Source of the DNA: a phage | Sequence record: QB031384.1 | Direction: 5' to 3' (one strand) | Length of the DNA stretch: 42,708 nt | Notes under the pieces: generated by a model | The model's input: the letters and a program-made list of their open reading frames with translations, nothing else | Databases searched by the model: none | What the model was told of the DNA's origin: nothing | In this document: positions 18,582 through 39,162 of the stretch, piece by piece | How positions within the stretch are numbered: position 1 is the stretch's first letter | How the letters are laid out: every line of letters begins with the position of its first letter | Made by a program: the position numbers and the translations under genes

Positions 18582-21032
18582 CTAACAGAAAAAGAATCTG
18601 CTACCCAGTACCTGCTTAAGGTCCAAAGAACCTTTAGCTGGTAACTCCAGCCCTTCTAAGTCTGCCCCACAAGCTACTGCCGCATCAGTAATCTCCTGAA
18701 GTACGTCATGCTCTGTGTACAGACGTAGGAACTGTTCGCGGATAGCAGAATGCATTTCATCTACATCGCAAGCGTGAGTAGCTACCGAGTCGTGGATAGG
18801 CATAATGTCTCCTGAGAATGCAGAGATAGTCATACCTAAGTGAGTAGCGTCTAAGCTGTGCACCCAATTAGGGGAGATGCCTGACTTAGCCTTACGCTTG
18901 TTGTTTACATTGTAGTTACGGTTGTACACCAGCAGGTGTGTCAGGTTCATGCTCTTAACAGAAACCTTAGTCTCTTCTGATTCAGTGTATCGGTTGATAA
19001 CCAGCCCGCCTAACGGAGTCTTCCATTGAAGGTGGTTGGCTGCTGGTACACGATAGCACAGTGACTGTACATATTTCATCGCCTCAGTAGCTGCTGGGTT
19101 AGCGTCCTCTACTGCTGCCTTCATGCGAGTACTCAGATATCCTGCCAGCTTGAACAGGCTGTACTCTTCCGTTCCTTCGTAACCTTCTTCCTGTGCAGAC
19201 TGAAGGATGTACTCGGAGCAAGAGCGCACAGTAGCCGAGTATACGTGTGTCATGCATGGACGTTTAGCCATGCTGCGGGTAATCTCGTTCCCACGCCAGT
19301 AGTTAGCCTGCACTACGAAGTCAGGATTGTCCAGGTCCATGATGACCTTAGCATCAGTACGGCGCTTAACGTCCATGTACATATCTGCTTTCTCTTCGTT
19401 ACCCTCCCAGAACAGGTTAACTAAACGACCACCTACTGAGTCACGCAGTAACGCGGCGAAGTGCTGCTGCCCCGAGTTGGTTGCATCCATAGCCACCGGA
19501 ATGCGTGATTCGTATGTTTCCGGGCTGCCAGAGTCAATAGCAGCAACGAGGTCGATGCAGGCTGCCAGAAAACACCACGGGCTGTCTGCACTCCTGAAAG
19601 CTTCTGCATTAAACGGATTTGATGCGACAAGTCGAATCTGCTCGATATTAGCATCAGTCCAAGCTGCACGCTTTTCGAATAAGGCTTTATCATAACCATA
19701 GCAGGTAGCGACGTGTACCTTGAGCCAAAACAAACCCCGCTCTCCCAGAGGCTTTGCCCGACTGAAGGAGAGCAAAGCTTTCTGCATGTCAGGACCCTGA
19801 GGGTGCAGGCTTGATTTGAAGTACAGGCGGTAGCGCCAGTCAACGCAGGTTGGGAAGTACAGTTCTTTCTCATCCTTAAACTCCTCGCAGAGTTGAACCA
19901 GTGTCACCATGGAACGCAACTTACTTACGCGAGTACGCTCTTGGATGTACCAGTTACGCATATTCATCTTCCAAGTCTGGAAGTCATCCATCTGGCGCTC
20001 GGTGTAATCCTCTTTAGGTACACCGTCCAGATACCACTCAGGTCTAGGGGCTGGGTAGGAACTAGGCATACCTGTCGTTACACCTTCACGACGTGCTTGG
20101 TTAAGCAGATTAAGTACTTCCTTGTTGATAACGTAAGGCACTTCCTGCGCCTTGTTCAGCATATCCTTCAGTCCCTCTGCCTGCTTGAATGCCTCTGCTA
20201 CTTCACGTTTCATTGCACGAGTAATCTGGTGATTATGGTAAGTACCGCGCTTGCAAGTGCTGCTTAGAAGGTATCCACCTGAGAACATGTCTACATGCTT
20301 CTGCGGAGGTACAATCATTGGGGGTTTAATCTCTACGGTATCTGCGTCCAGTACTAAATCGCCTAGTACCTCAGCTAATACTTCAGACGGTGCCAAGTAT
20401 TGTAGCTGGGTTGCGTCAGTGCTCTTATCCCACGTGAACAGGCCTGTTTCCCACACAGGTTGTAGGATTAATTTACCTACTGCTACACACTGAGAAGCGG
20501 ACCAAGGTTCATGCCCGTAGTGCACGTTCTCTGCTGAAGCACGTAAGGTCTTCATAATATGCGACTGACTTGTAGTGTTACGTTCTTTCAAGTACTCAAA
20601 TACACGATTCATATATGCGGGTGCAACTACTTCTAGCTGTATGCTAAGGACCTCGGCTTGAACCTGGCGCCCTAGGTTAGCCAGCAAAGCTTGTGCAGAT
20701 GTACGGCTTCCACCAGACTCTTTAAGGAAGAGGGAGTCAATGCATTTAGTGAGTGCCATTACAGCGAGAACGTCAGTAGGGACCAGACGGATAATGCTGC
20801 GGTACTTACCGCCGACGCCTGCGGTCTTCTGTACCTTCATCTCGTCAATGCCTTGAGCAACAGTATCATAGGCTGCTGCAATCATGCGACTTACCTTAGG
20901 CAGGCTGCTTAAGTTACCTGCTGCCAGTGCCTTCTGCACCAGCTCACGCGACTTGTTCAAGCTGCGCGTACGGTAATCTTTCTCTAACTGTAACTGGCGT
21001 TCTACTTTCTGTTCTAATGTTTCGTGTTGCAT
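18582..21032 (-). CDS. DNA-directed RNA polymerase, single-subunit (T7-like)
   Basis: 816-aa ORF. Motif A DATNSGQQHFAALLRD, motif B RSMAKRPCMTHVYSAT, motif C IHDS. GAGGG SD 4 nt upstream. Sits directly before the structural genes. Confidence 0.9.
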   Translation of the reverse strand: MQHETLEQKVERQLQLEKDYRTRSLNKSRELVQKALAAGNLSSLPKVSRMIAAAYDTVAQGIDEMKVQKTAGVGGKYRSIIRLVPTDVLAVMALTKCIDSLFLKESGGSRTSAQALLANLGRQVQAEVLSIQLEVVAPAYMNRVFEYLKERNTTSQSHIMKTLRASAENVHYGHEPWSASQCVAVGKLILQPVWETGLFTWDKSTDATQLQYLAPSEVLAEVLGDLVLDADTVEIKPPMIVPPQKHVDMFSGGYLLSSTCKRGTYHNHQITRAMKREVAEAFKQAEGLKDMLNKAQEVPYVINKEVLNLLNQARREGVTTGMPSSYPAPRPEWYLDGVPKEDYTERQMDDFQTWKMNMRNWYIQERTRVSKLRSMVTLVQLCEEFKDEKELYFPTCVDWRYRLYFKSSLHPQGPDMQKALLSFSRAKPLGERGLFWLKVHVATCYGYDKALFEKRAAWTDANIEQIRLVASNPFNAEAFRSADSPWCFLAACIDLVAAIDSGSPETYESRIPVAMDATNSGQQHFAALLRDSVGGRLVNLFWEGNEEKADMYMDVKRRTDAKVIMDLDNPDFVVQANYWRGNEITRSMAKRPCMTHVYSATVRSCSEYILQSAQEEGYEGTEEYSLFKLAGYLSTRMKAAVEDANPAATEAMKYVQSLCYRVPAANHLQWKTPLGGLVINRYTESEETKVSVKSMNLTHLLVYNRNYNVNNKRKAKSGISPNWVHSLDATHLGMTISAFSGDIMPIHDSVATHACDVDEMHSAIREQFLRLYTEHDVLQEITDAAVACGADLEGLELPAKGSLDLKQVLGSRFFFC

Positions 21033-26018: not shown

Positions 26019-26591
26019 TTACATTGCCCAATCAGGACGCTCACCCTTACCGCAGTAAAAGTCAATCAGGTCTAGTAAGCGCGGATAATACTTCAGCGAA
26101 CTCTTACCGTCCATTTCCGCAACCTGGCGCCTACTGAAGCTGCGCCACTCTGCTGCCGTATGCTGCTGACATCCTGCACGCACTATGTCCTTACAGATAC
26201 TAATGAAGTACGTTTCTCCGTATATAATGACAGTCTTGGCGCCGCGCAGGTCAGCGCGGCGCAGGTTAGCGCCGCGCAGGTCAGCGTAGCGCAGGTCAGC
26301 GTCGCGCAGGTCAGTACCGGTCAGGTCAGCGCCGCGCAGGTCAGCGATGCGCAGGTCAGCGTCGCGCAGGTCAGCGCCGCTCAGGTCAGCGCCGCGCAGG
26401 TCAGTACCGGTCAGGTCAGCGCCGCGCAGGTTAGCGTAGCGCAGGTTAGCGCCGCGCAGGTCAGCGTCGCGCAGGTCAGTGCTGCTCAGGTCAGCGTCGC
26501 ACAGGTCAGCGTCGCGCAGGTTAGCGCGGCGCAGGTCAACGCTGTGCAGTCTTCCTAACTTATATATTTCGCAGATTTCTTGATAGTTCAT
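26019..26591 (-). CDS. Pentapeptide-repeat protein 1 (about 21 tandem A(D/N)LxG-type pentapeptides plus 70-aa non-repeat C-terminal domain)
   Basis: 190-aa ORF with an unbroken run of [15 protein letters not shown] pentapeptides after the N-terminal cap [12 protein letters not shown]. Strand chosen because all flanking genes are minus-strand. Confidence 0.8.
26238..26549. repeat. Tandem array of about 21 copies of a 15-bp unit (CGCAGGTCAGCGNCG-like) encoding the pentapeptide repeats
   Basis: Periodicity is visible directly: gcgcaggtcagcg recurs every 15 bp, varying mainly at 2-3 positions per unit. Confidence 0.9.
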
Positions 26592-27378: not shown

Positions 27379-27489
27379 ATTGAATCCTCTTAAGTCTGCA
27401 ACCTCACCGCGAAGTTGCTTAACTAAGAGACTTCCTTAGCGAGTCTTATTTCTCTTAGACTCTCATCTGCATCGCACTGTATTACCTGT

Positions 27490-27638
27490 GCACGGGAGGA
27501 ACCGCTCAAGCTCGTACTATCTACCCAGAGCTTTCAGGAGGGCACCGGGATTAAAGTCCCCGGTGACTAACAAGCCGCTTTGCTATCTGCATCTCGTCTT
27601 GATGAAATGAATTCTACAGCATTCTAAAACTGTGTCAA
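27490..27638 (-). promoter_or_regulatory. Promoter-leader cassette R1: sigma70-like promoter (TTGACA - 16 bp - TAGAAT) plus conserved structured 5' leader
   Basis: -35 at 27633-27638 and -10 at 27611-27616. Downstream leader contains a hairpin (CACCGGG/CCCGGTG), GCCCTCCTGAA, a second hairpin with loop GGGTAGATA, and GAGCGGTTCCTCCCGT. Homologous to copies at 34406-34528 and 35943-36080. Confidence 0.55.
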
Positions 27639-32813: not shown

Positions 32814-33350
32814 TTAGATACTAACCCAATCAGCGACGCGCAGGTCAGCGTCGCGCAGGTCAGTGCCGGTCAGGTCAGCGCCGCGCAGGTTAGCGCCGCG
32901 CAGGTTAGCGCCAATCAGGTTAGCGTCGCGCAGGTTAGCGCCGCTCAGGTCAGTGCCGCGCAGGTTAGCGCCGCGCAGGTTAGCGCCGTGCAGGTCAGCG
33001 CTGCGCAGGTCAGCGCCGCTCAGGTCAGCGCCGCTCAGGTCAGCGATGTTCAGGTCAGCGTAGCGCAGGTCAGCGCCGCGCAGGTCAGCGCCGCTCAGGT
33101 CAGCGCCGCGCAGGTTAGCGCCAATCAGGTTAGCGTCGCGCAGCTTAGCGTCGCTCAGGTCAGCGACGCGCAGGTCAGCGTCGCTCAGGTCAGCGTAGCG
33201 CAGGTCAGCGCCGCTCAGGTCAGCGCCGCGCAGGTCAGCGTCGAGCAGGTTAGCGCGGCGCAGGTCAGCGCCGCACAGGTCAGCGCCGCACAGGTCAGCG
33301 CCTTCCAAGGATTCTAACTTGTATTTATTACAGATATTGTCATAAGTCAT
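32814..33350 (-). CDS. Pentapeptide-repeat protein 2 (about 32 tandem pentapeptides; paralogue of 26019-26591)
   Basis: Unbroken A(D/N)L(R/S/C)G-type run that ends at the stop codon. Preferred start is the internal ATG at 33350 (GAGGT SD 8 nt upstream; cap MTYDNICNKYKL matches [12 protein letters not shown] of protein 1). The ORF track extends it to 33401. Confidence 0.8.
   Translation of the reverse strand: MTYDNICNKYKLESLEGADLCGADLCGADLRRANLLDADLRGADLSGADLRYADLSDADLRVADLSDAKLRDANLIGANLRGADLSGADLRGADLRYADLNIADLSGADLSGADLRSADLHGANLRGANLRGTDLSGANLRDANLIGANLRGANLRGADLTGTDLRDADLRVADWVSI
32827..33302. repeat. Tandem array of about 32 copies of the same 15-bp unit (CGCAGGTCAGCGNCG-like)
   Basis: Same 15-bp periodicity and unit sequence as the array at 26238-26549, on the same strand. 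Confidence 0.9.
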
Positions 33351-33360
33351 ATTAGTAACC

Positions 33361-33597
33361 TCAGTTAATTTTAATATTAAAACGTGCACAATACCCTTCA
33401 AGGGTCATCCCTACTTTAGCTGCTTTAAGACTGTAAGCTAACTTAAGAGCTTCCTTAGCGTCATGCTCACGAGCCAGCTTCTCAATCGTTACTTCATCAT
33501 TACGCATCAGAATCATTTCGGGGTTCCGGTTAATCATTTCTGCATCTCCAGTTTGAAAAGGGCCATTGCAGCGTTCCAGGCGAAACGCGGGTTGCAT
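33361..33597 (-). CDS. Hypothetical protein (78 aa)
   Basis: ORF-track ORF in the early/middle region. No motif recognised. Confidence 0.45.
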   Translation of the reverse strand: MQPAFRLERCNGPFQTGDAEMINRNPEMILMRNDEVTIEKLAREHDAKEALKLAYSLKAAKVGMTLEGYCARFNIKIN

Positions 33598-34312: not shown

Positions 34313-34405
34313 CTTAACTCCTTAGTGGTTTTATTAAAGCCCTCCGCAGAAGGCTTTGTAAAACTACTTTAGTTTCTTTCATCTCAGACCCACTGAATTA
34401 TCCGT

Positions 34406-34528
34406 GGACGGGAGGAACCGCTCGAGCCTGTTCTATCTACCCTAGGCTCTCAGAAGGGCAATCACTTAGCGTTGTTGATTAACGTCCTGCTATGAATCCA
34501 ACTATACTCCTATTTTATTTTGTGTCAA
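34406..34528 (-). promoter_or_regulatory. Promoter-leader cassette R2: sigma70-like promoter (TTGACA - 16 bp - TATAGT) plus conserved structured leader
   Basis: -35 at 34523-34528 and -10 at 34501-34506. Leader has a hairpin (AATCA/TGATT), GCCCTTCTGA, a GAGCC/GGCTC stem around GGGTAGATA, and GAGCGGTTCCTCCCGT. Confidence 0.55.
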
Positions 34529-34531
34529 CAC

Positions 34532-35197
34532 TTATTTTGAAATTCTTTCTGAAATATACACAAATCCCTTAGGAGTAAACTGCGCAGAGATGCGTGCAAC
34601 CTTTAATCTGTCAAAAGTAACCTTATGCTCCCCACGTTTAGCCTTTAGCCAGCCTGCACTGAATGTCCACGTACCATTCAATTTATACATATGCTTATTC
34701 TCTACCAGCCAACTTCTTACTTCAGCTTCAGTGTAAGATAAGAACTTACACATCTCACGGAAAGTCATAAGACCTGTAGTATCTACATAGTTACCTACGA
34801 ACTCAACCTTAGGCGCTGCTTCTTCTACCTTCTCTTGGAGCTTCAAGTTCTCTTCTGCGTAGTTCTGGAGAAGTCCCAGCAACTGCTTAGGGTCATGCAA
34901 GTTAATAGCAGGCTGACGTTGCTTACGCTCCAGCTCTTCCCAACGGTCAATGATACGGGCGCGCAGTTCTACATTGTAGCCAGAGATAATAAGTAATGTA
35001 TCACGTTTAGTTAAATGCCACTCGCGCTGTTGCTGATTATTATATCCGGCGTAAGTTACTGATTTACTTGATTGGCTCAAAACTGAGCCAATGCTTTCAA
35101 TGTCCCTAAGTACGTTCTTATGCAACTTACCAGTCAGCTCAGCAATCTCGCGGCTAGTCATGGTCTGTACATCAGTAGTAGTAGTTAAATCAAACAT
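34532..35197 (-). CDS. Rha-family regulatory protein with KilA-C/antirepressor-like C-terminal domain
   Basis: 221-aa ORF. N-terminal MTSREIAELTGKLHKNVLRDIESI matches the Rha signature as recalled. C-terminal half resembles antirepressor KilA-C domains. Confidence 0.55.
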   Translation of the reverse strand: MFDLTTTTDVQTMTSREIAELTGKLHKNVLRDIESIGSVLSQSSKSVTYAGYNNQQQREWHLTKRDTLLIISGYNVELRARIIDRWEELERKQRQPAINLHDPKQLLGLLQNYAEENLKLQEKVEEAAPKVEFVGNYVDTTGLMTFREMCKFLSYTEAEVRSWLVENKHMYKLNGTWTFSAGWLKAKRGEHKVTFDRLKVARISAQFTPKGFVYISERISK

Positions 35198-35448
35198 TAC
35201 ATAGTCCCCATAGAATCAACAAAGCAAGCAACAACGATAGTCTTATCTTCATAAGGCATAGCCTCGACACTGTTGAGAGTGTCTACAAGGTCCTTCAGCT
35301 CGATACCTTGTGTGTACGCCCACTTACCCCAGTTGCACAGCTCAATACTGTTAGGCGCTGCTTTAGACGGGTTACAGTACACCATAGCCGCAGTACCTAC
35401 CAGTGCCGCACAGAACCAGATTTTAAACGTATTCAGTTTCATATACAC
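35197..35448 (-). CDS. Small secreted/membrane-targeted protein (83 aa) with N-terminal signal peptide-like segment
   Basis: N-terminus MYMKLNTFKIWFCAALVGTAAMVYC is hydrophobic and signal-like. GAGGTG SD upstream. Confidence 0.45.
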   Translation of the reverse strand: MYMKLNTFKIWFCAALVGTAAMVYCNPSKAAPNSIELCNWGKWAYTQGIELKDLVDTLNSVEAMPYEDKTIVVACFVDSMGTM

Positions 35449-35543
35449 CTCAGGAGAACAGTTGAATTAAGCCGTAGATAGCTAAGAAAGGTGCTGCTAC
35501 CTGCAACAGCATTAAAGGGATGATGAATAGCATGTACAGTGTA

Positions 35544-35882
35544 TTACGCATTATGTGCATTCTCCTCACAATACTGCAACGCAAAGCGCAGCAATTCATT
35601 ATACAGCGAAGTAGTCAGAATCCCTTCATTGTAGTACTCAGCCTCATGCTTACGGAGAGTATCCTTAGCAGCGCATGCAACCTTCAAGCTGCACCCTGTA
35701 GCCTGCATAAGGCCGCGTACAAGCTGTGTATCCTTATAAGCTTTCTTAGCATGCCATTTAACAAAACTTACTGCTGCACCTACAACAACCATACCACCCA
35801 TCACGACAAAGCCAATTGCACTAGACATATCATATACCTTTAATTCTGTACCCTCGCAGCGAGGATACTTAACTAAAGACAT
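35544..35882 (-). CDS. Hypothetical membrane protein (112 aa)
   Basis: First ORF after promoter-leader cassette R3. Contains one clear hydrophobic helix (GFVVMGGMVVVGAAVSFV). Confidence 0.45.
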   Translation of the reverse strand: MSLVKYPRCEGTELKVYDMSSAIGFVVMGGMVVVGAAVSFVKWHAKKAYKDTQLVRGLMQATGCSLKVACAAKDTLRKHEAEYYNEGILTTSLYNELLRFALQYCEENAHNA

Positions 35883-35942
35883 CTTAGCGAAGCTCTTGTC
35901 TCTTCAATCTAGTGAGCTTCTCATCTATTCCCTCTGTATAAC

Positions 35943-36080
35943 CCGAGGACGCTAGGTAACGCTCAGAACCTGTTTATCTACCCCGATTCTTCAGGAGGGC
36001 AGCGGCTTTATGTTATCCGCTAACGTCTTGCTTATGTCTTGCTATGTGATGAAGTATACGCTTCAAAACAGGTAAGTCAA
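35943..36080 (-). promoter_or_regulatory. Promoter-leader cassette R3: sigma70-like promoter (TTGACT - 16 bp - TATACT) plus conserved structured leader
   Basis: -35 at 36075-36080 and -10 at 36053-36058. Leader has a hairpin (AGCGG/CCGCT), GCCCTCCTGAA, an AGAAUC/GGUUCU stem (one G-U pair) around GGGTAGATA, and a diverged GAGCG...CCUC segment. Confidence 0.55.
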
Positions 36081-36135
36081 CAACTATTTTCAATTATTTC
36101 ATTCAGCGTAGTAAAATCTCGCACTATTAATAACA

Positions 36136-36909
36136 CTAACAAACTTCAGTGTCCTTACCTACTGCCTCAGATTGTAAGCGGACTAGCTCAATCTCTATCT
36201 CCTCCCAACTCTTAGAAGAGTAATCAGAATCTTCATACTCATCGCTAGTCATCCACTTACTATAGCGCTTGATACCATACTTCGTACGCACTATAGGAGT
36301 AGTATCTAATCCTTCACAATGGTTATTAGGATACGCTACTGAGCAGTTTAACCCGCCTAAAGAACCTTCAGCTATATCTATAGCTAAGCCTAAGCGTGCT
36401 TCCTTACCTCCAACTATACCATCACTATAAGGATACTCTGCACCTGCATTAACAGTACGTATAAAGTTAAGCTCATAAGCCCATATCATGTCAGCAGCAG
36501 CGTAAGGTGCTATAACAGCAGCTACACTACGCAAAGCCTTACTGAGCCTCCTAGACTCTGTACCACTACAACTACAGTACTTCTTAATACTGGCAGGAGT
36601 ATAGTCTGGTAGAGTCTTAGAGAGCCATAGCAGTTGTTCTATCTTCCCAATGTCCTTACTACTCCAGTCCTTAGTAAGCGCTACGGCAGCTCCATATAAA
36701 GCAAGAACATCAGCAGGTACTGTATCTATATCCTTACCTGTAAGATACGCAGACAACAGCGTAGAGTCAGCCTGCCTGTACTCTCGCAGCTGCTTACGCT
36801 TAGCTGTTATCTCCTTAGAGCTTTGAACTACAGCACCAGTAACTTGATTAACCCAACCATTTCTTCCCTGCTTCCAGAGATTACCGTTTACATCTATCTT
36901 AGTAGCCAT
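36136..36909 (-). CDS. First early protein (257 aa from SD-supported ATG), function unknown; acidic C-terminus
   Basis: The ORF track starts at 36924, but the second ATG (36909) has a GAGGT SD 6 nt upstream. It is the first gene after the putative genome end; C-terminus is acidic (DEYEDSDYSS, EEIEIE). Confidence 0.55.
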   Translation of the reverse strand: MATKIDVNGNLWKQGRNGWVNQVTGAVVQSSKEITAKRKQLREYRQADSTLLSAYLTGKDIDTVPADVLALYGAAVALTKDWSSKDIGKIEQLLWLSKTLPDYTPASIKKYCSCSGTESRRLSKALRSVAAVIAPYAAADMIWAYELNFIRTVNAGAEYPYSDGIVGGKEARLGLAIDIAEGSLGGLNCSVAYPNNHCEGLDTTPIVRTKYGIKRYSKWMTSDEYEDSDYSSKSWEEIEIELVRLQSEAVGKDTEVC

Positions 36910-37093
36910 CCTATACCTCTGCATGTAGTAAAAACTCGCACTATATATATAACAGTACTTAGTTCATTGACTCACCTGATTGTTAAAGAACTACCTATAC
37001 TACCTATAATATCACAGCGCTAACCCTGCATCAAGCATTGCACAGCCTGGGAGCAAAAGAGGTAAGCCCGGAGGCATAGCAGCGGCATGCAGC

Positions 37094-37187
37094 AGAGATA
37101 CAGTAGAGATACAGTACTGAACAAGGTGCTGAACAAAATAGGCAAAAGCATCTCAGAGCATCTCCCTGTGCTCGACAAAATAGGCAA
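37094..37187. repeat. Cluster of short direct repeats in the non-coding putative terminal region
   Basis: agagatacagt is tandemly duplicated (37094-37115); ctgaacaa occurs twice; acaaaataggcaa occurs twice 42 bp apart; agcatctc occurs twice. Confidence 0.5.
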
Positions 37188-37354
37188 GACTAACCTCTCC
37201 CGCACCCTCAACAGAGAGCGCAGAGACAGCCAGCCAAGCCAGGTCCTGCCAGAGATACGCAGAGGCACCCCCTACCCTCCCTCCAGAAGATTCCCAGAGG
37301 CCGCCCCTACGGGGGGAACAGCGCGTTGGTCGGGTGAGGGAGGGCCTCGTGTGA

Positions 37355-37391
37355 GTATAATAAATTCAAGGTGCTTGTTTACACGAGCACC
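37355..37391 (-). terminator. Putative rho-independent terminator after the last gene (tailspike)
   Basis: On the minus strand: stem GGUGCU/AGCACC (37370-37375 paired with 37386-37391), 10-nt loop, then UUGAAUUUAUUAU. Stem is short and the U-tract is interrupted. Confidence 0.4.
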
Positions 37392-37416
37392 CTGATGCTT
37401 CTCAGGTACATCCCCT

Positions 37417-39162
37417 TTAGTTATTGCGTCCTGTAAGAAGTACTGCATGATCATACGTGTGCTGCACCCCATCCAGCTGCATGCACAGACCTATTAACTG
37501 ACCGTTACTGCTGCCGGAATAACTAGCAGGAGCATCAAACTGACCTGAGATACCGCGTCTATCCAGGGCATCTGCACGAGCAACCCAACTGTAGTTACCT
37601 GGAGCAGCACTACGCTGTACGCCCGACCCAGCGGGTAAAGTAAAGCTAAGCTGTTTAGGGAAGCTACAGCGTAAGTTCAGAGGAGGTGCACCGCCATCTT
37701 CGAAGAACAATGCATTCCCTGAGCTGGTAGCCCAGTTAGAAGGGAATACTTCTACAGTACAGTCGCTGAAGCTCGTGCCAGGACGAAAGTACATGAAGCT
37801 GTAAAGTTCTGAGCTAGGGTGGCGCATCCTGATACTGATGTTGCAGCGGGTCATGCTTGAGATACGTTGTGTTTCAAACAAGTTCAGTCCGGTACGAGTA
37901 CCAGTATTAGTATCGCCGATGATGTTACTTGCATCCCAATTGAAGCGTTCTACCTGAACAGTACGGGGAGACGGTAACTCCGAGACCATAGCTTGTTTAA
38001 CATCGAAGAAGTTATCCTGGAACACTATGCCCTGAATACTACCGTTCATAGTAATGGCTGCGCTCAGGCTACGGCTGCGGTCTACAATGAAGCTACAACC
38101 ACGTACAGTAACATCATTAATGAGATACTGGCTTGAGTCGGAGTTAGAGTCCTGAAAGAAGTCTACGAAGCTGCACATACCCGGGTGGTTACCTGAAGTG
38201 AACCGACAATTCTCTACAGTAAAGCCGTTAATATGCGTAGTAGCTACTGCATCTGGACCTGCTGCAAAGATAACAACCTGACCTGATACGTCCCCAGTTA
38301 CCCCGGACATAACAGAGTTGTAAAGGTACGTACCAGCACCCTCTGACTCTGCGCCGTGCAGTGCTACATAGCAGCCGCGGGTATATCCTGAAATGAAAGA
38401 ATCGCGATAGTACGTATTATGCTGGTGCAGTTCTACAGTAGCAGCAATTACACGTGCACGGGCAGAATTAGCCCGGAATGTACAGCCTGTGACACCACTA
38501 AATGGTGCGTTTACATATACAGTACTGTGGTCACGGTTTACATCGCTCTGAATCAGGTTAAGGAACCGGCAGTTACGTACATGCGTATCTGAGCCGTACC
38601 CGTTCCAGCCAATAGTAACGCCCCATGTAACGTCCCCGTTCTGGAAGGTAATGCCATCTACGCTACAGTTATACCCGCGTCCGAATGCGATACCATTGCG
38701 GAGATGCCCGGCGTTAGCGAAGTCGTAACCGCCAAAGTCAATAGTACCCTCGCCATAAATATGGCAGTTATCAAGGTTGCCCGAGTTAGCTGGGTTACCA
38801 TCAGTAAAGCCTACGAAGACTTGGAAGGAACTATTAGCTAAAGCAGGGCCTACTTTAATAGTACCGTCCAGTTTAATACTTACATTGCTTTTAAGCTGGA
38901 TAAGACCGCTATGCCCTGAAACTGGGCCAGTGCTAATGCTGTTCAGCGTCCATGTACCTTCCGGGATAACTAGTAAACCGCCACCTACTGACTCTATGTA
39001 ATCAATAGCTGCCTGCATACCTTCTCGGGCATCAGCTACGTCGGGAGTAATCCACTGGCGCAGGTTATACCCATTATCATTGAGGTAGGTGCTAAGCTGT
39101 AAACCTGAATGGTCTACATGCAGCGTATCCAGTTCGACTTCAACTAACTTTACTAAGGTCAT
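37417..39162 (-). CDS. Tailspike / polysaccharide depolymerase with right-handed beta-helix (pectate-lyase-like), no N-terminal particle-anchor domain
   Basis: 581-aa ORF with N-terminal REGMQAAIDYIESVGGGLLVIPEGTWTLNS, then Gly/Asn/Thr-rich repeats typical of parallel beta-helices. No gp17-like adaptor region. Last gene before the putative genome end. Confidence 0.7.
   Translation of the reverse strand: MTLVKLVEVELDTLHVDHSGLQLSTYLNDNGYNLRQWITPDVADAREGMQAAIDYIESVGGGLLVIPEGTWTLNSISTGPVSGHSGLIQLKSNVSIKLDGTIKVGPALANSSFQVFVGFTDGNPANSGNLDNCHIYGEGTIDFGGYDFANAGHLRNGIAFGRGYNCSVDGITFQNGDVTWGVTIGWNGYGSDTHVRNCRFLNLIQSDVNRDHSTVYVNAPFSGVTGCTFRANSARARVIAATVELHQHNTYYRDSFISGYTRGCYVALHGAESEGAGTYLYNSVMSGVTGDVSGQVVIFAAGPDAVATTHINGFTVENCRFTSGNHPGMCSFVDFFQDSNSDSSQYLINDVTVRGCSFIVDRSRSLSAAITMNGSIQGIVFQDNFFDVKQAMVSELPSPRTVQVERFNWDASNIIGDTNTGTRTGLNLFETQRISSMTRCNISIRMRHPSSELYSFMYFRPGTSFSDCTVEVFPSNWATSSGNALFFEDGGAPPLNLRCSFPKQLSFTLPAGSGVQRSAAPGNYSWVARADALDRRGISGQFDAPASYSGSSNGQLIGLCMQLDGVQHTYDHAVLLTGRNN

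Follow-up and report, generated by a model that had tools for sequence, protein, structure and literature searches.

The first gene of this phage genome encodes a member of a new, tiny and unannotated protein family restricted to its phage clade, and it lies in a slot whose contents have been exchanged between close relatives. Our reading of the protein, which we put forward tentatively, is that of a dispensable early accessory effector, serving host take-over or counter-defence, in which a constant N-terminal handle is joined to an exchangeable C-terminal domain. The window is the whole stretch of 42,708 nt (~42.7 kb) that was analyzed, a circularly permuted genome; all positions refer to it, and the minus strand carries all of its genes.

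The phage is a Slopekvirinae podovirus of the phiKMV/KDA1-like kind. Its nearest GenBank relatives, S.Kent 1-2-1, P64441, PAS7, and phiKDA1, are likewise Slopekvirinae; the genus Cepavirus was founded on PAS7, and Koutsourovirus is its neighbor genus (PMC11522302). The window also encodes a T7-type terminase and lysis genes. The original prediction had reasoned from the T7 group, yet the phage does not belong to that group proper: its single-subunit RNA polymerase (18582 to 21032, minus strand) adjoins the structural genes, and it is phiKMV/KDA1-like rather than T7-like in the narrow sense.

The gene is the first after the left-end non-coding region, and on this point the earlier proposal was right. 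Its open reading frame (ORF) is separated by 492 nt of non-coding DNA from the last late gene, which encodes the tailspike (37417 to 39162, minus strand). The phiKDA1 record is linear, with an annotated left terminal repeat of 267 bp, and the positional counterpart of the gene starts there at nt 512. In the long contigs L001 and L006, the gene comes after a terminase-lysis(-tailspike) block and a non-coding gap, and in the short metagenomic contigs L003 and L009, the assembly ends just 5′ of it. By analogy with other autographiviruses, we infer that the genome end bearing the gene enters the cell first.

A sigma70-like promoter candidate with the form TTGATG-17-TATTAT and a TG element lies ~95 nt upstream of the start codon (37006 to 37034, minus strand). 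L001 and P64441 keep it as TTGACG-17-TATGCT (alignment A5), and it is the probable promoter of the first gene. The genome's three best promoters of the sigma70 type, at 36080, 34528, and ~27640, are all located downstream. Thus, the gene does not stand behind the main early promoters but upstream of the first of them, the near-consensus sigma70-type promoter P1 (TTGACT-16-TATACT; 36053 to 36080, minus strand), which forms the downstream boundary of the slot. Expression of the first gene may therefore be low. Farther upstream, the left-end non-coding region (37040 to 37400, minus strand) is highly conserved between the window, P64441, and L001, and is probably the terminal-repeat or packaging region. 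Within it are a G+C-rich stretch, CCCTCCCTCACCCGACC...GGAGGGAGGGTAGGGGG, another promoter-like sequence (TAAACA-16-TATACT, 37381 to 37354), and three copies of CTT[AG]CCT[AC]TTTTG; in phiKDA1, the annotated terminal repeat has this last motif at its inner edge.

In the ORF list, the reading frame runs from an ATG at 36924 to the stop at 36136 (minus strand) and encodes 262 aa. Every homolog, however, starts at the second ATG (36909; MATK...). Since an AGAGG ribosome-binding site also stands 6 nt 5′ of this codon, and since the relative L009 has ATA where the first ATG stands, the start is likely at 36909, which gives a coding sequence at 36136 to 36909 (minus strand) of 257 aa plus the stop. 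The predicted length of 257 to 262 aa matches these two alternatives. The ORF is a genuine gene and evolves under purifying selection: ten homologous clusters exist, and dN/dS against four relatives is 0.13 to 0.24 where synonymous sites are unsaturated. Its GC content is 43%, versus 48% for the window, and the GC minimum of the window (0.413) falls at 36001 to 37000.

The protein had been described as uncharacterized, and the database searches agree. A tblastn search of 50,697 GenBank phages gave zero matches, and searches of IMG/VR and of 185,579 GTDB species genomes found no relative. Neither the window protein nor any family member matches an entry in Pfam, PHROGs, NCBIfam, PADLOC, or the PDB sequences. 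For the 11 members, Pfam and NCBIfam gave nothing even at an E value of ≤10, including Ocr, ArdA, or any other mimic family, and no defence-related profile was found in PADLOC, a collection of defence rather than anti-defence proteins. Homologs were found in a 5.8-billion-protein collection, which holds eight clusters with 55 to 96% identity, and by an exhaustive phmmer search of 1.84 billion representatives, which added two clusters with 45 to 46% identity. Overall, these homologs are 43 to 96% identical to the window protein over at least 170 aa, with E values of 1e-39 to 1e-163; together with it, these homologs (P0001 to P0010) make up the new family. A further phmmer match, P0011 (1364 aa, 8 stretches), was rejected as spurious: it is a eukaryote-like repeat protein that matches only LP.YxP...C....LLK, with a score inflated by repetition.

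The family-specific core spans residues 38 to 210 (36280 to 36798, minus strand; alignments A1, A2, and A4). The family alignment has 49 invariant columns, and the window protein contains the core motif REY..AD..L...L..(x)..LY.AA.ALT.DW...QL..LSK.L..Y.P..I..YC.C..E..RLS.ALRS...PY...W. The core is mostly alpha-helical, with a Gly-rich segment and a near-invariant EQLLWLSKTLPDYTPASIKKYCSCSGTESRRLSKALRS that may resemble a helix-turn-helix, and AlphaFold2 (AF2) models it as all-helical with a pLDDT of 51. The profile and structure-based homology searches that the original prediction called for have been run, and they gave no profile match and no meaningful fold match. Because the AlphaFold models are of low confidence (pLDDT of 48 to 51), the fold searches are uninformative, and for the same reason, reading the product as a binding protein is a default.

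The comparison with P64441 shows how the gene is replaced. The two genomes are 97% identical at 34384 to 36089 and 84% identical at 37009 to 37384. Between these conserved flanks, the segment at 36090 to 37008 (minus strand) is unrelated, and P64441 carries there an unrelated 244-aa gene, whose product is homologous to phiKDA1 ORF2, and two small ORFs. The cassette has thus been exchanged by recombination between the flanks. Since a near-identical phage lacks it, the cassette is dispensable, and its swapping between near-identical phages is what would be expected of an accessory gene for host interaction or counter-defence. The family itself is new, and it belongs to a known kind, the early accessory ORFans of variable slots.

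Other occupants of the slot are the phiKDA1 ORF2/P64441/Entb_48 proteins, PAS7 gp1 and its S.Kent counterpart, and the proteins of SDFMU_Pec, KKP 3828, and IMG/VR L016/L017. They are 181 to 244 aa in size, are annotated as “hypothetical,” and have no match in Pfam or PHROG. These unannotated first-gene proteins of sister phages are the closest relatives of the window protein in every sense, as they occupy its slot, are of similar size, begin with the same kind of basic module (~35 aa), and have a 5′ leader akin to its own. In contrast, their C-terminal 150 to 220 aa are unrelated to the window protein by BLASTP and hhalign.

The shared part is a basic N-terminal beta-module, residues 1 to 35 (MATKIDVNGNLWKQGRNGWVNQVTGAVVQSSKEIT; 36805 to 36909, minus strand), delimited with AF2, BLASTP, and hhalign. 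It is the sole part modeled with confidence, as three beta strands (pLDDT of 77 to 86 over residues 1 to 30), and at least six first-gene proteins of the clade, otherwise unrelated, begin with variants of it. BLASTP matches among these proteins are limited to the N terminus (48 to 77% identity over 20 to 45 aa), where pairwise E values within this small set are 1e-6 to 1e-17. Similarly, when the window family is compared with the KDA1 family by hhalign, the N-terminal part alone aligns. P0010 and PAS7 have 11 of their first 13 residues in common and differ at 9 of 39 nt; since the DNA differences are synonymous, the module is conserved at the protein level.

At the start of the first gene, the module follows the consensus [KR]..[IV].G..[KR].N[YG][YW].[DN]..TG.E or a GYLV.GEFY.TK.EA variant, and three types can be told apart. 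Type 1, that of the window protein (KIDVNGNLWKQGRNGWVNQVTG), carries a WKQG insertion there and is also found on the 92-aa P0012, with 54% identity over 46 aa. Type 2, K.ID/QGKR.N.Y.V.G..Y.TK.EA, heads P0005 to P0009 of the window family as well as the phiKDA1 ORF2 family. Type 3, MAV[IV]RKQRRV.GKK.NYW.D..TG.E, heads P0010 of the window family and the proteins of PAS7 (gp1), S.Kent, SDFMU_Pec, KKP 3828, and L016/L017. Type 1 aligns in register with type 3 (alignment A11), and on this alignment it is plausible that it is akin to types 2 and 3. Types 2 and 3 thus occur both within the window family and in unrelated families. Because module types do not track the families of the C-terminal domains, the parts have been shuffled.

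The three-stranded beta prediction is the only resemblance of the module to a WW domain. This identification was rejected, as hhalign gave a probability of 1.1% for alignment A11 against six WW sequences. A profile search of the 5.8-billion-protein database with the N-terminal module alone returned nothing, the query being too short.

An early effector of this kind could act as follows. Host RNA polymerase would probably transcribe the gene from its weak conserved promoter once the leading DNA end is inside the cell. The product consists of three parts: the basic beta-module of ~35 aa, which in sister phages is joined, at the same place in the genome, to at least five other unrelated C-terminal domains; the strongly conserved, mainly helical core specific to the family; and an optional acidic/aromatic tail. 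The constant module would dock to a common partner, be it a nucleic acid or a host or phage machine, and the exchangeable domain would neutralize a variable host factor by binding it through protein-protein or protein-DNA contacts, a mode of action other than DNA mimicry. Alternatively, the constant module could serve expression, stability, or localization instead of docking to a target.

A broader proposal, which we consider possible but doubtful, is that the left-end slot of KDA1/PAS7-like Slopekvirinae is a polymorphic early effector system, with the window protein as a new effector type. The constant 5′ leader and the module of ~35 aa would then be a docking or delivery handle for at least six C-terminal domains, each of which would neutralize a different host defence or host function. 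Polymorphic effector architecture is known from Rhs, CDI, and similar systems. As in such toxin/effector loci, a constant N-terminal part is combined here with exchangeable, unrelated C-terminal domains and with shuffling by recombination. Yet the constant part is only ~35 aa long, and the protein is an intracellular early protein of a phage rather than a secreted one. The slot yielded neither a toxin domain nor a consistent downstream “immunity” ORF, and our literature search found no description, for this phage group, of a short constant N-terminal module with exchangeable C-terminal domains. Other systems are comparable in position and exchange: conjugative plasmids have anti-defence genes in their leading region, and phage T5 has pre-early genes. 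These genes are accessory, are the first to enter, and are exchanged between close relatives, but they are not homologous to the window gene.

ORFan genes of this swap-prone kind at the ends of phage genomes can instead act in superinfection exclusion or regulation, or be selfish. In this regard, an accessory role of another sort is somewhat unlikely for the first gene, whether in superinfection exclusion, in protecting or handling the entering end, or as a selfish cassette kept by its linkage to the end. Such a role would suit a gene that is dispensable, prone to swapping, restricted to a clade, and first to enter, and the neighboring tailspike body has been exchanged as well. Against it, strong purifying selection on the core and the 49 invariant columns point to a selected activity, not a passenger. 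The tailspike body (37417 to 39151, minus strand), next to the genome end, is a second exchanged module: the window and P64441 show no similarity across it, and 88% identity returns from 39152. As this body has also been exchanged, genome ends are general recombination hot spots.

The gene is bracketed by a direct repeat of 19 to 25 nt with the consensus ATAGTGCGAG[T/A]TTTTACTAC. The upstream copy (TATATATAGTGCGAGTTTTTACTAC; 36925 to 36949, minus strand) abuts the ORF, and the downstream copy (TATTAATAGTGCGAGATTTTACTAC; 36108 to 36132, minus strand) follows 4 to 10 nt after the stop codon. Exact 19-mers of this repeat (family D9) occur twice, compared with a mean of 0.04 in 100 shuffles. No gene lies between the downstream copy and promoter P1 in the window; in relatives, a small gene usually comes next after the second copy. 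L009, L003, L006 to L008, and P64441 have two-copy brackets of their own sequence, alike within a phage and different between phages. The upstream copy resembles a −10 element (TATAGT) followed by a 5′ leader, and the elements TGAGGACA and TTTACTAC recur in phages with different C-terminal domains. These sequences indicate that the 5′ leader also belongs to the constant front end and that the bracket is probably a duplicated compact promoter/leader unit, composed of TATAGT or TATAAT and a 5′ untranslated region.

On the opposite strand, the bracket (CTCGCACTATA) resembles T7/EM1-type promoters; the EM1 promoter is TCAGAAGTCACACTATAA (PMC9596486). It was rejected as a promoter for the phage RNA polymerase: in this orientation it would point away from the genes, and its match to EM1, with 5 mismatches, ties with three chance matches. 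CACTATA is absent from the sense strand of the genome, and two extra antisense copies within the ORF are due to conserved codons, such as those for YPYSDG. When intergenic regions were searched de novo for phage promoters, only a weak CTAAAGTAG motif emerged.

The repeat bears on a second alternative, namely, that the protein is a sequence-specific DNA-binding regulator whose N-terminal module and core helix-turn-helix bind the bracket or the early promoters, possibly tuning early transcription or shutting off that of the host. This is quite unlikely. The nearly invariant PASIKKYCSCSGTESRRLSKALRS is predicted to form a helix, a 3-residue turn with Gly, and a helix; the N terminus is basic; and the direct repeat brackets the gene here and, with a diverged sequence, in relatives. 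Nevertheless, no helix-turn-helix family was found in any member even at an E value of ≤10, and the idea has no fold support. The putative recognition helix is almost invariant, whereas the bracket is strongly variable between phages. Moreover, brackets of the same kind surround unrelated first genes, as in P64441, so that the bracket belongs to the slot.

Downstream of the slot, the genome encodes three copies of a structured RNA leader of ~117 nt, one behind each of the strong early promoters, which have the form AAAATAAGTGTTGACAC-N16-TATAGT/TATACT/TAGAAT. The leader after P1 lies at 35916 to 36032 and the other two at 34375 to 34491 and 27459 to 27579 (all minus strand). The RNA folds into four hairpins with the conserved loops AACGATAA and GGGGTAGATAAAC. 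Across ten copies from five phages, 13 of the 19 base pairs have compensatory double changes; paired cells make up 98%, compared with 30 to 44% in slid controls; and none of 500 shuffles reached the covariation score. The copy at 35916 to 36032 has no match in Rfam even at an E value of ≤1, and nothing in the window reaches the Rfam gathering threshold. With covariance model R1, the leader is found only in the window, P64441, PAS7, L001, and L009, with a weak hit of 23 bits in phiKDA1. Among the loci, it is present in L001, L004, L005, and L009, is weak in L006 (E = 0.16), and is undetected in L003, which includes 5.7 kb of the early region. The leader may be a put/nut-like antitermination element, a processing element, or an element that modifies RNA polymerase.

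The early genes behind P1 include small ORFs of 112, 49, and 83 aa (35197 to 35882, minus strand) whose hydrophobic stretches suggest products that are secreted or lie in the membrane; the ORF of 83 aa has a match to PHROG 19819, a group of unknown function. Next to them, a Rha/KilAC protein of 221 aa, similar to the anti-repressor Ant, is encoded at 34532 to 35197 (minus strand) and matches Pfam PF09669 and PF03374 and PHROG 63; it stands in the early region of a podovirus of strictly lytic type.

Lambda N and similar first-expressed early regulators have arginine-rich N-terminal arms. In a lambda-N-like scenario, the basic module would bind the RNA leaders and make host RNA polymerase processive. 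The first-gene position, the basic N-terminal arm, and the three covarying leaders placed directly after near-consensus promoters, here and in PAS7, P64441, L001, and L009, all recall such a system. We regard it as very unlikely, however. L003 and L006 carry the family and the module with no clear leader, and the leader in phiKDA1 is the weak one; the gene lies upstream of all three leaders; and six unrelated C-terminal domains are hard to square with a single conserved interface to RNA polymerase or Nus factors. The window protein also differs from lambda N in being much larger, with a conserved folded core.

The original prediction drew attention to an acidic C terminus and to DNA mimics such as Ocr, the product of T7 gene 0.3. 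An acidic C-terminal stretch is indeed present, but it is modest and is missing or replaced in distant homologs. The last 45 aa contain 12 D/E versus 6 K/R (charge of about −6 at pH 7), and 25-residue sliding windows across the tail go down to a net charge of −6. The acidic/aromatic tail itself (WMTSDEYEDSDYSSKSWEEIEIELVRLQSEAVGKDTEVC; 36139 to 36255, minus strand) comprises the last 39 aa and is an optional module: P0009 and P0010, which are the most distant members of the family, lack it, and the extreme C termini of P0003 to P0008 are variable, being neutral or basic. The 257-aa protein as a whole has 33 D+E versus 31 K+R (13% versus 12%), a net charge of −2, and a pI of 5.66, and its first 60 aa are basic (pI 10.4). 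Ocr, in contrast, has 34 D+E and 6 K+R in 117 aa (29% and 5%) and a net charge of −28. Since the whole protein is charge-balanced and its tail is missing or replaced in distant homologs, the DNA-mimic reading fails, and it is extremely unlikely that the protein presents an acidic, DNA-like surface that titrates out type I restriction-modification or BREX enzymes in the manner of Ocr, an anti-restriction and anti-BREX dimer of 117-aa subunits that mimics the shape and charge of DNA (PMC7261183).

The likeness to T7 gene 0.3 is one of position only. Each is the first gene at the first-entering end of an autographivirus genome and is probably transcribed by host RNA polymerase, and the product here does have an acidic stretch. 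However, the two proteins differ in size and have no sequence similarity, zero Pfam matches means none to Ocr or ArdA, and the window gene lies upstream of the main early promoters, whereas the Ocr gene lies behind them. Pentapeptide-repeat proteins, among which DNA mimics such as Qnr and MfpA are known, are encoded elsewhere in the window. One (26019 to 26591, minus strand) has 190 aa and matches Pfam PF00805 with an E value of 3e-37; the other (32814 to 33401, minus strand) has 195 aa and a pI of 4.6 and matches PF00805 with an E value of 8e-58. These two proteins are better candidates for DNA mimics in this phage than the first-gene product.

Finally, there is next to no chance that the protein has a late or structural function as an adaptor for the neighboring tailspike, its gene being expressed in concatemers by read-through from the late operon. 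The circular map does place the gene after that of the tailspike, this tailspike has no N-terminal anchor region, and a constant N-terminal module with a variable C-terminal domain is also the build of receptor-binding proteins. However, the phiKDA1 slot is at the left end with the terminal repeat between it and the late genes, the L006 tailspike is not adjacent, L001 pairs the same first-gene family (58% identity) with an unrelated tailspike, and no structural-protein profile matches. As to the tailspike itself, the match to its PHROG family begins only at profile position 180 of 721, so that the usual N-terminal anchor is missing.

A main source of new anti-defence and host-shut-off proteins is the set of early genes at the end by which a phage genome enters the cell, and the first-gene protein described here has no relative of known function and no recognizable fold. 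Our results correct the tempting rule that a first gene with an acidic product is Ocr-like. The constant N-terminal module is a small, testable unit. If the proteins of this slot are effectors, the slot would provide a ready-made catalog of candidates, with near-isogenic phages that differ only in the cassette as a built-in control.
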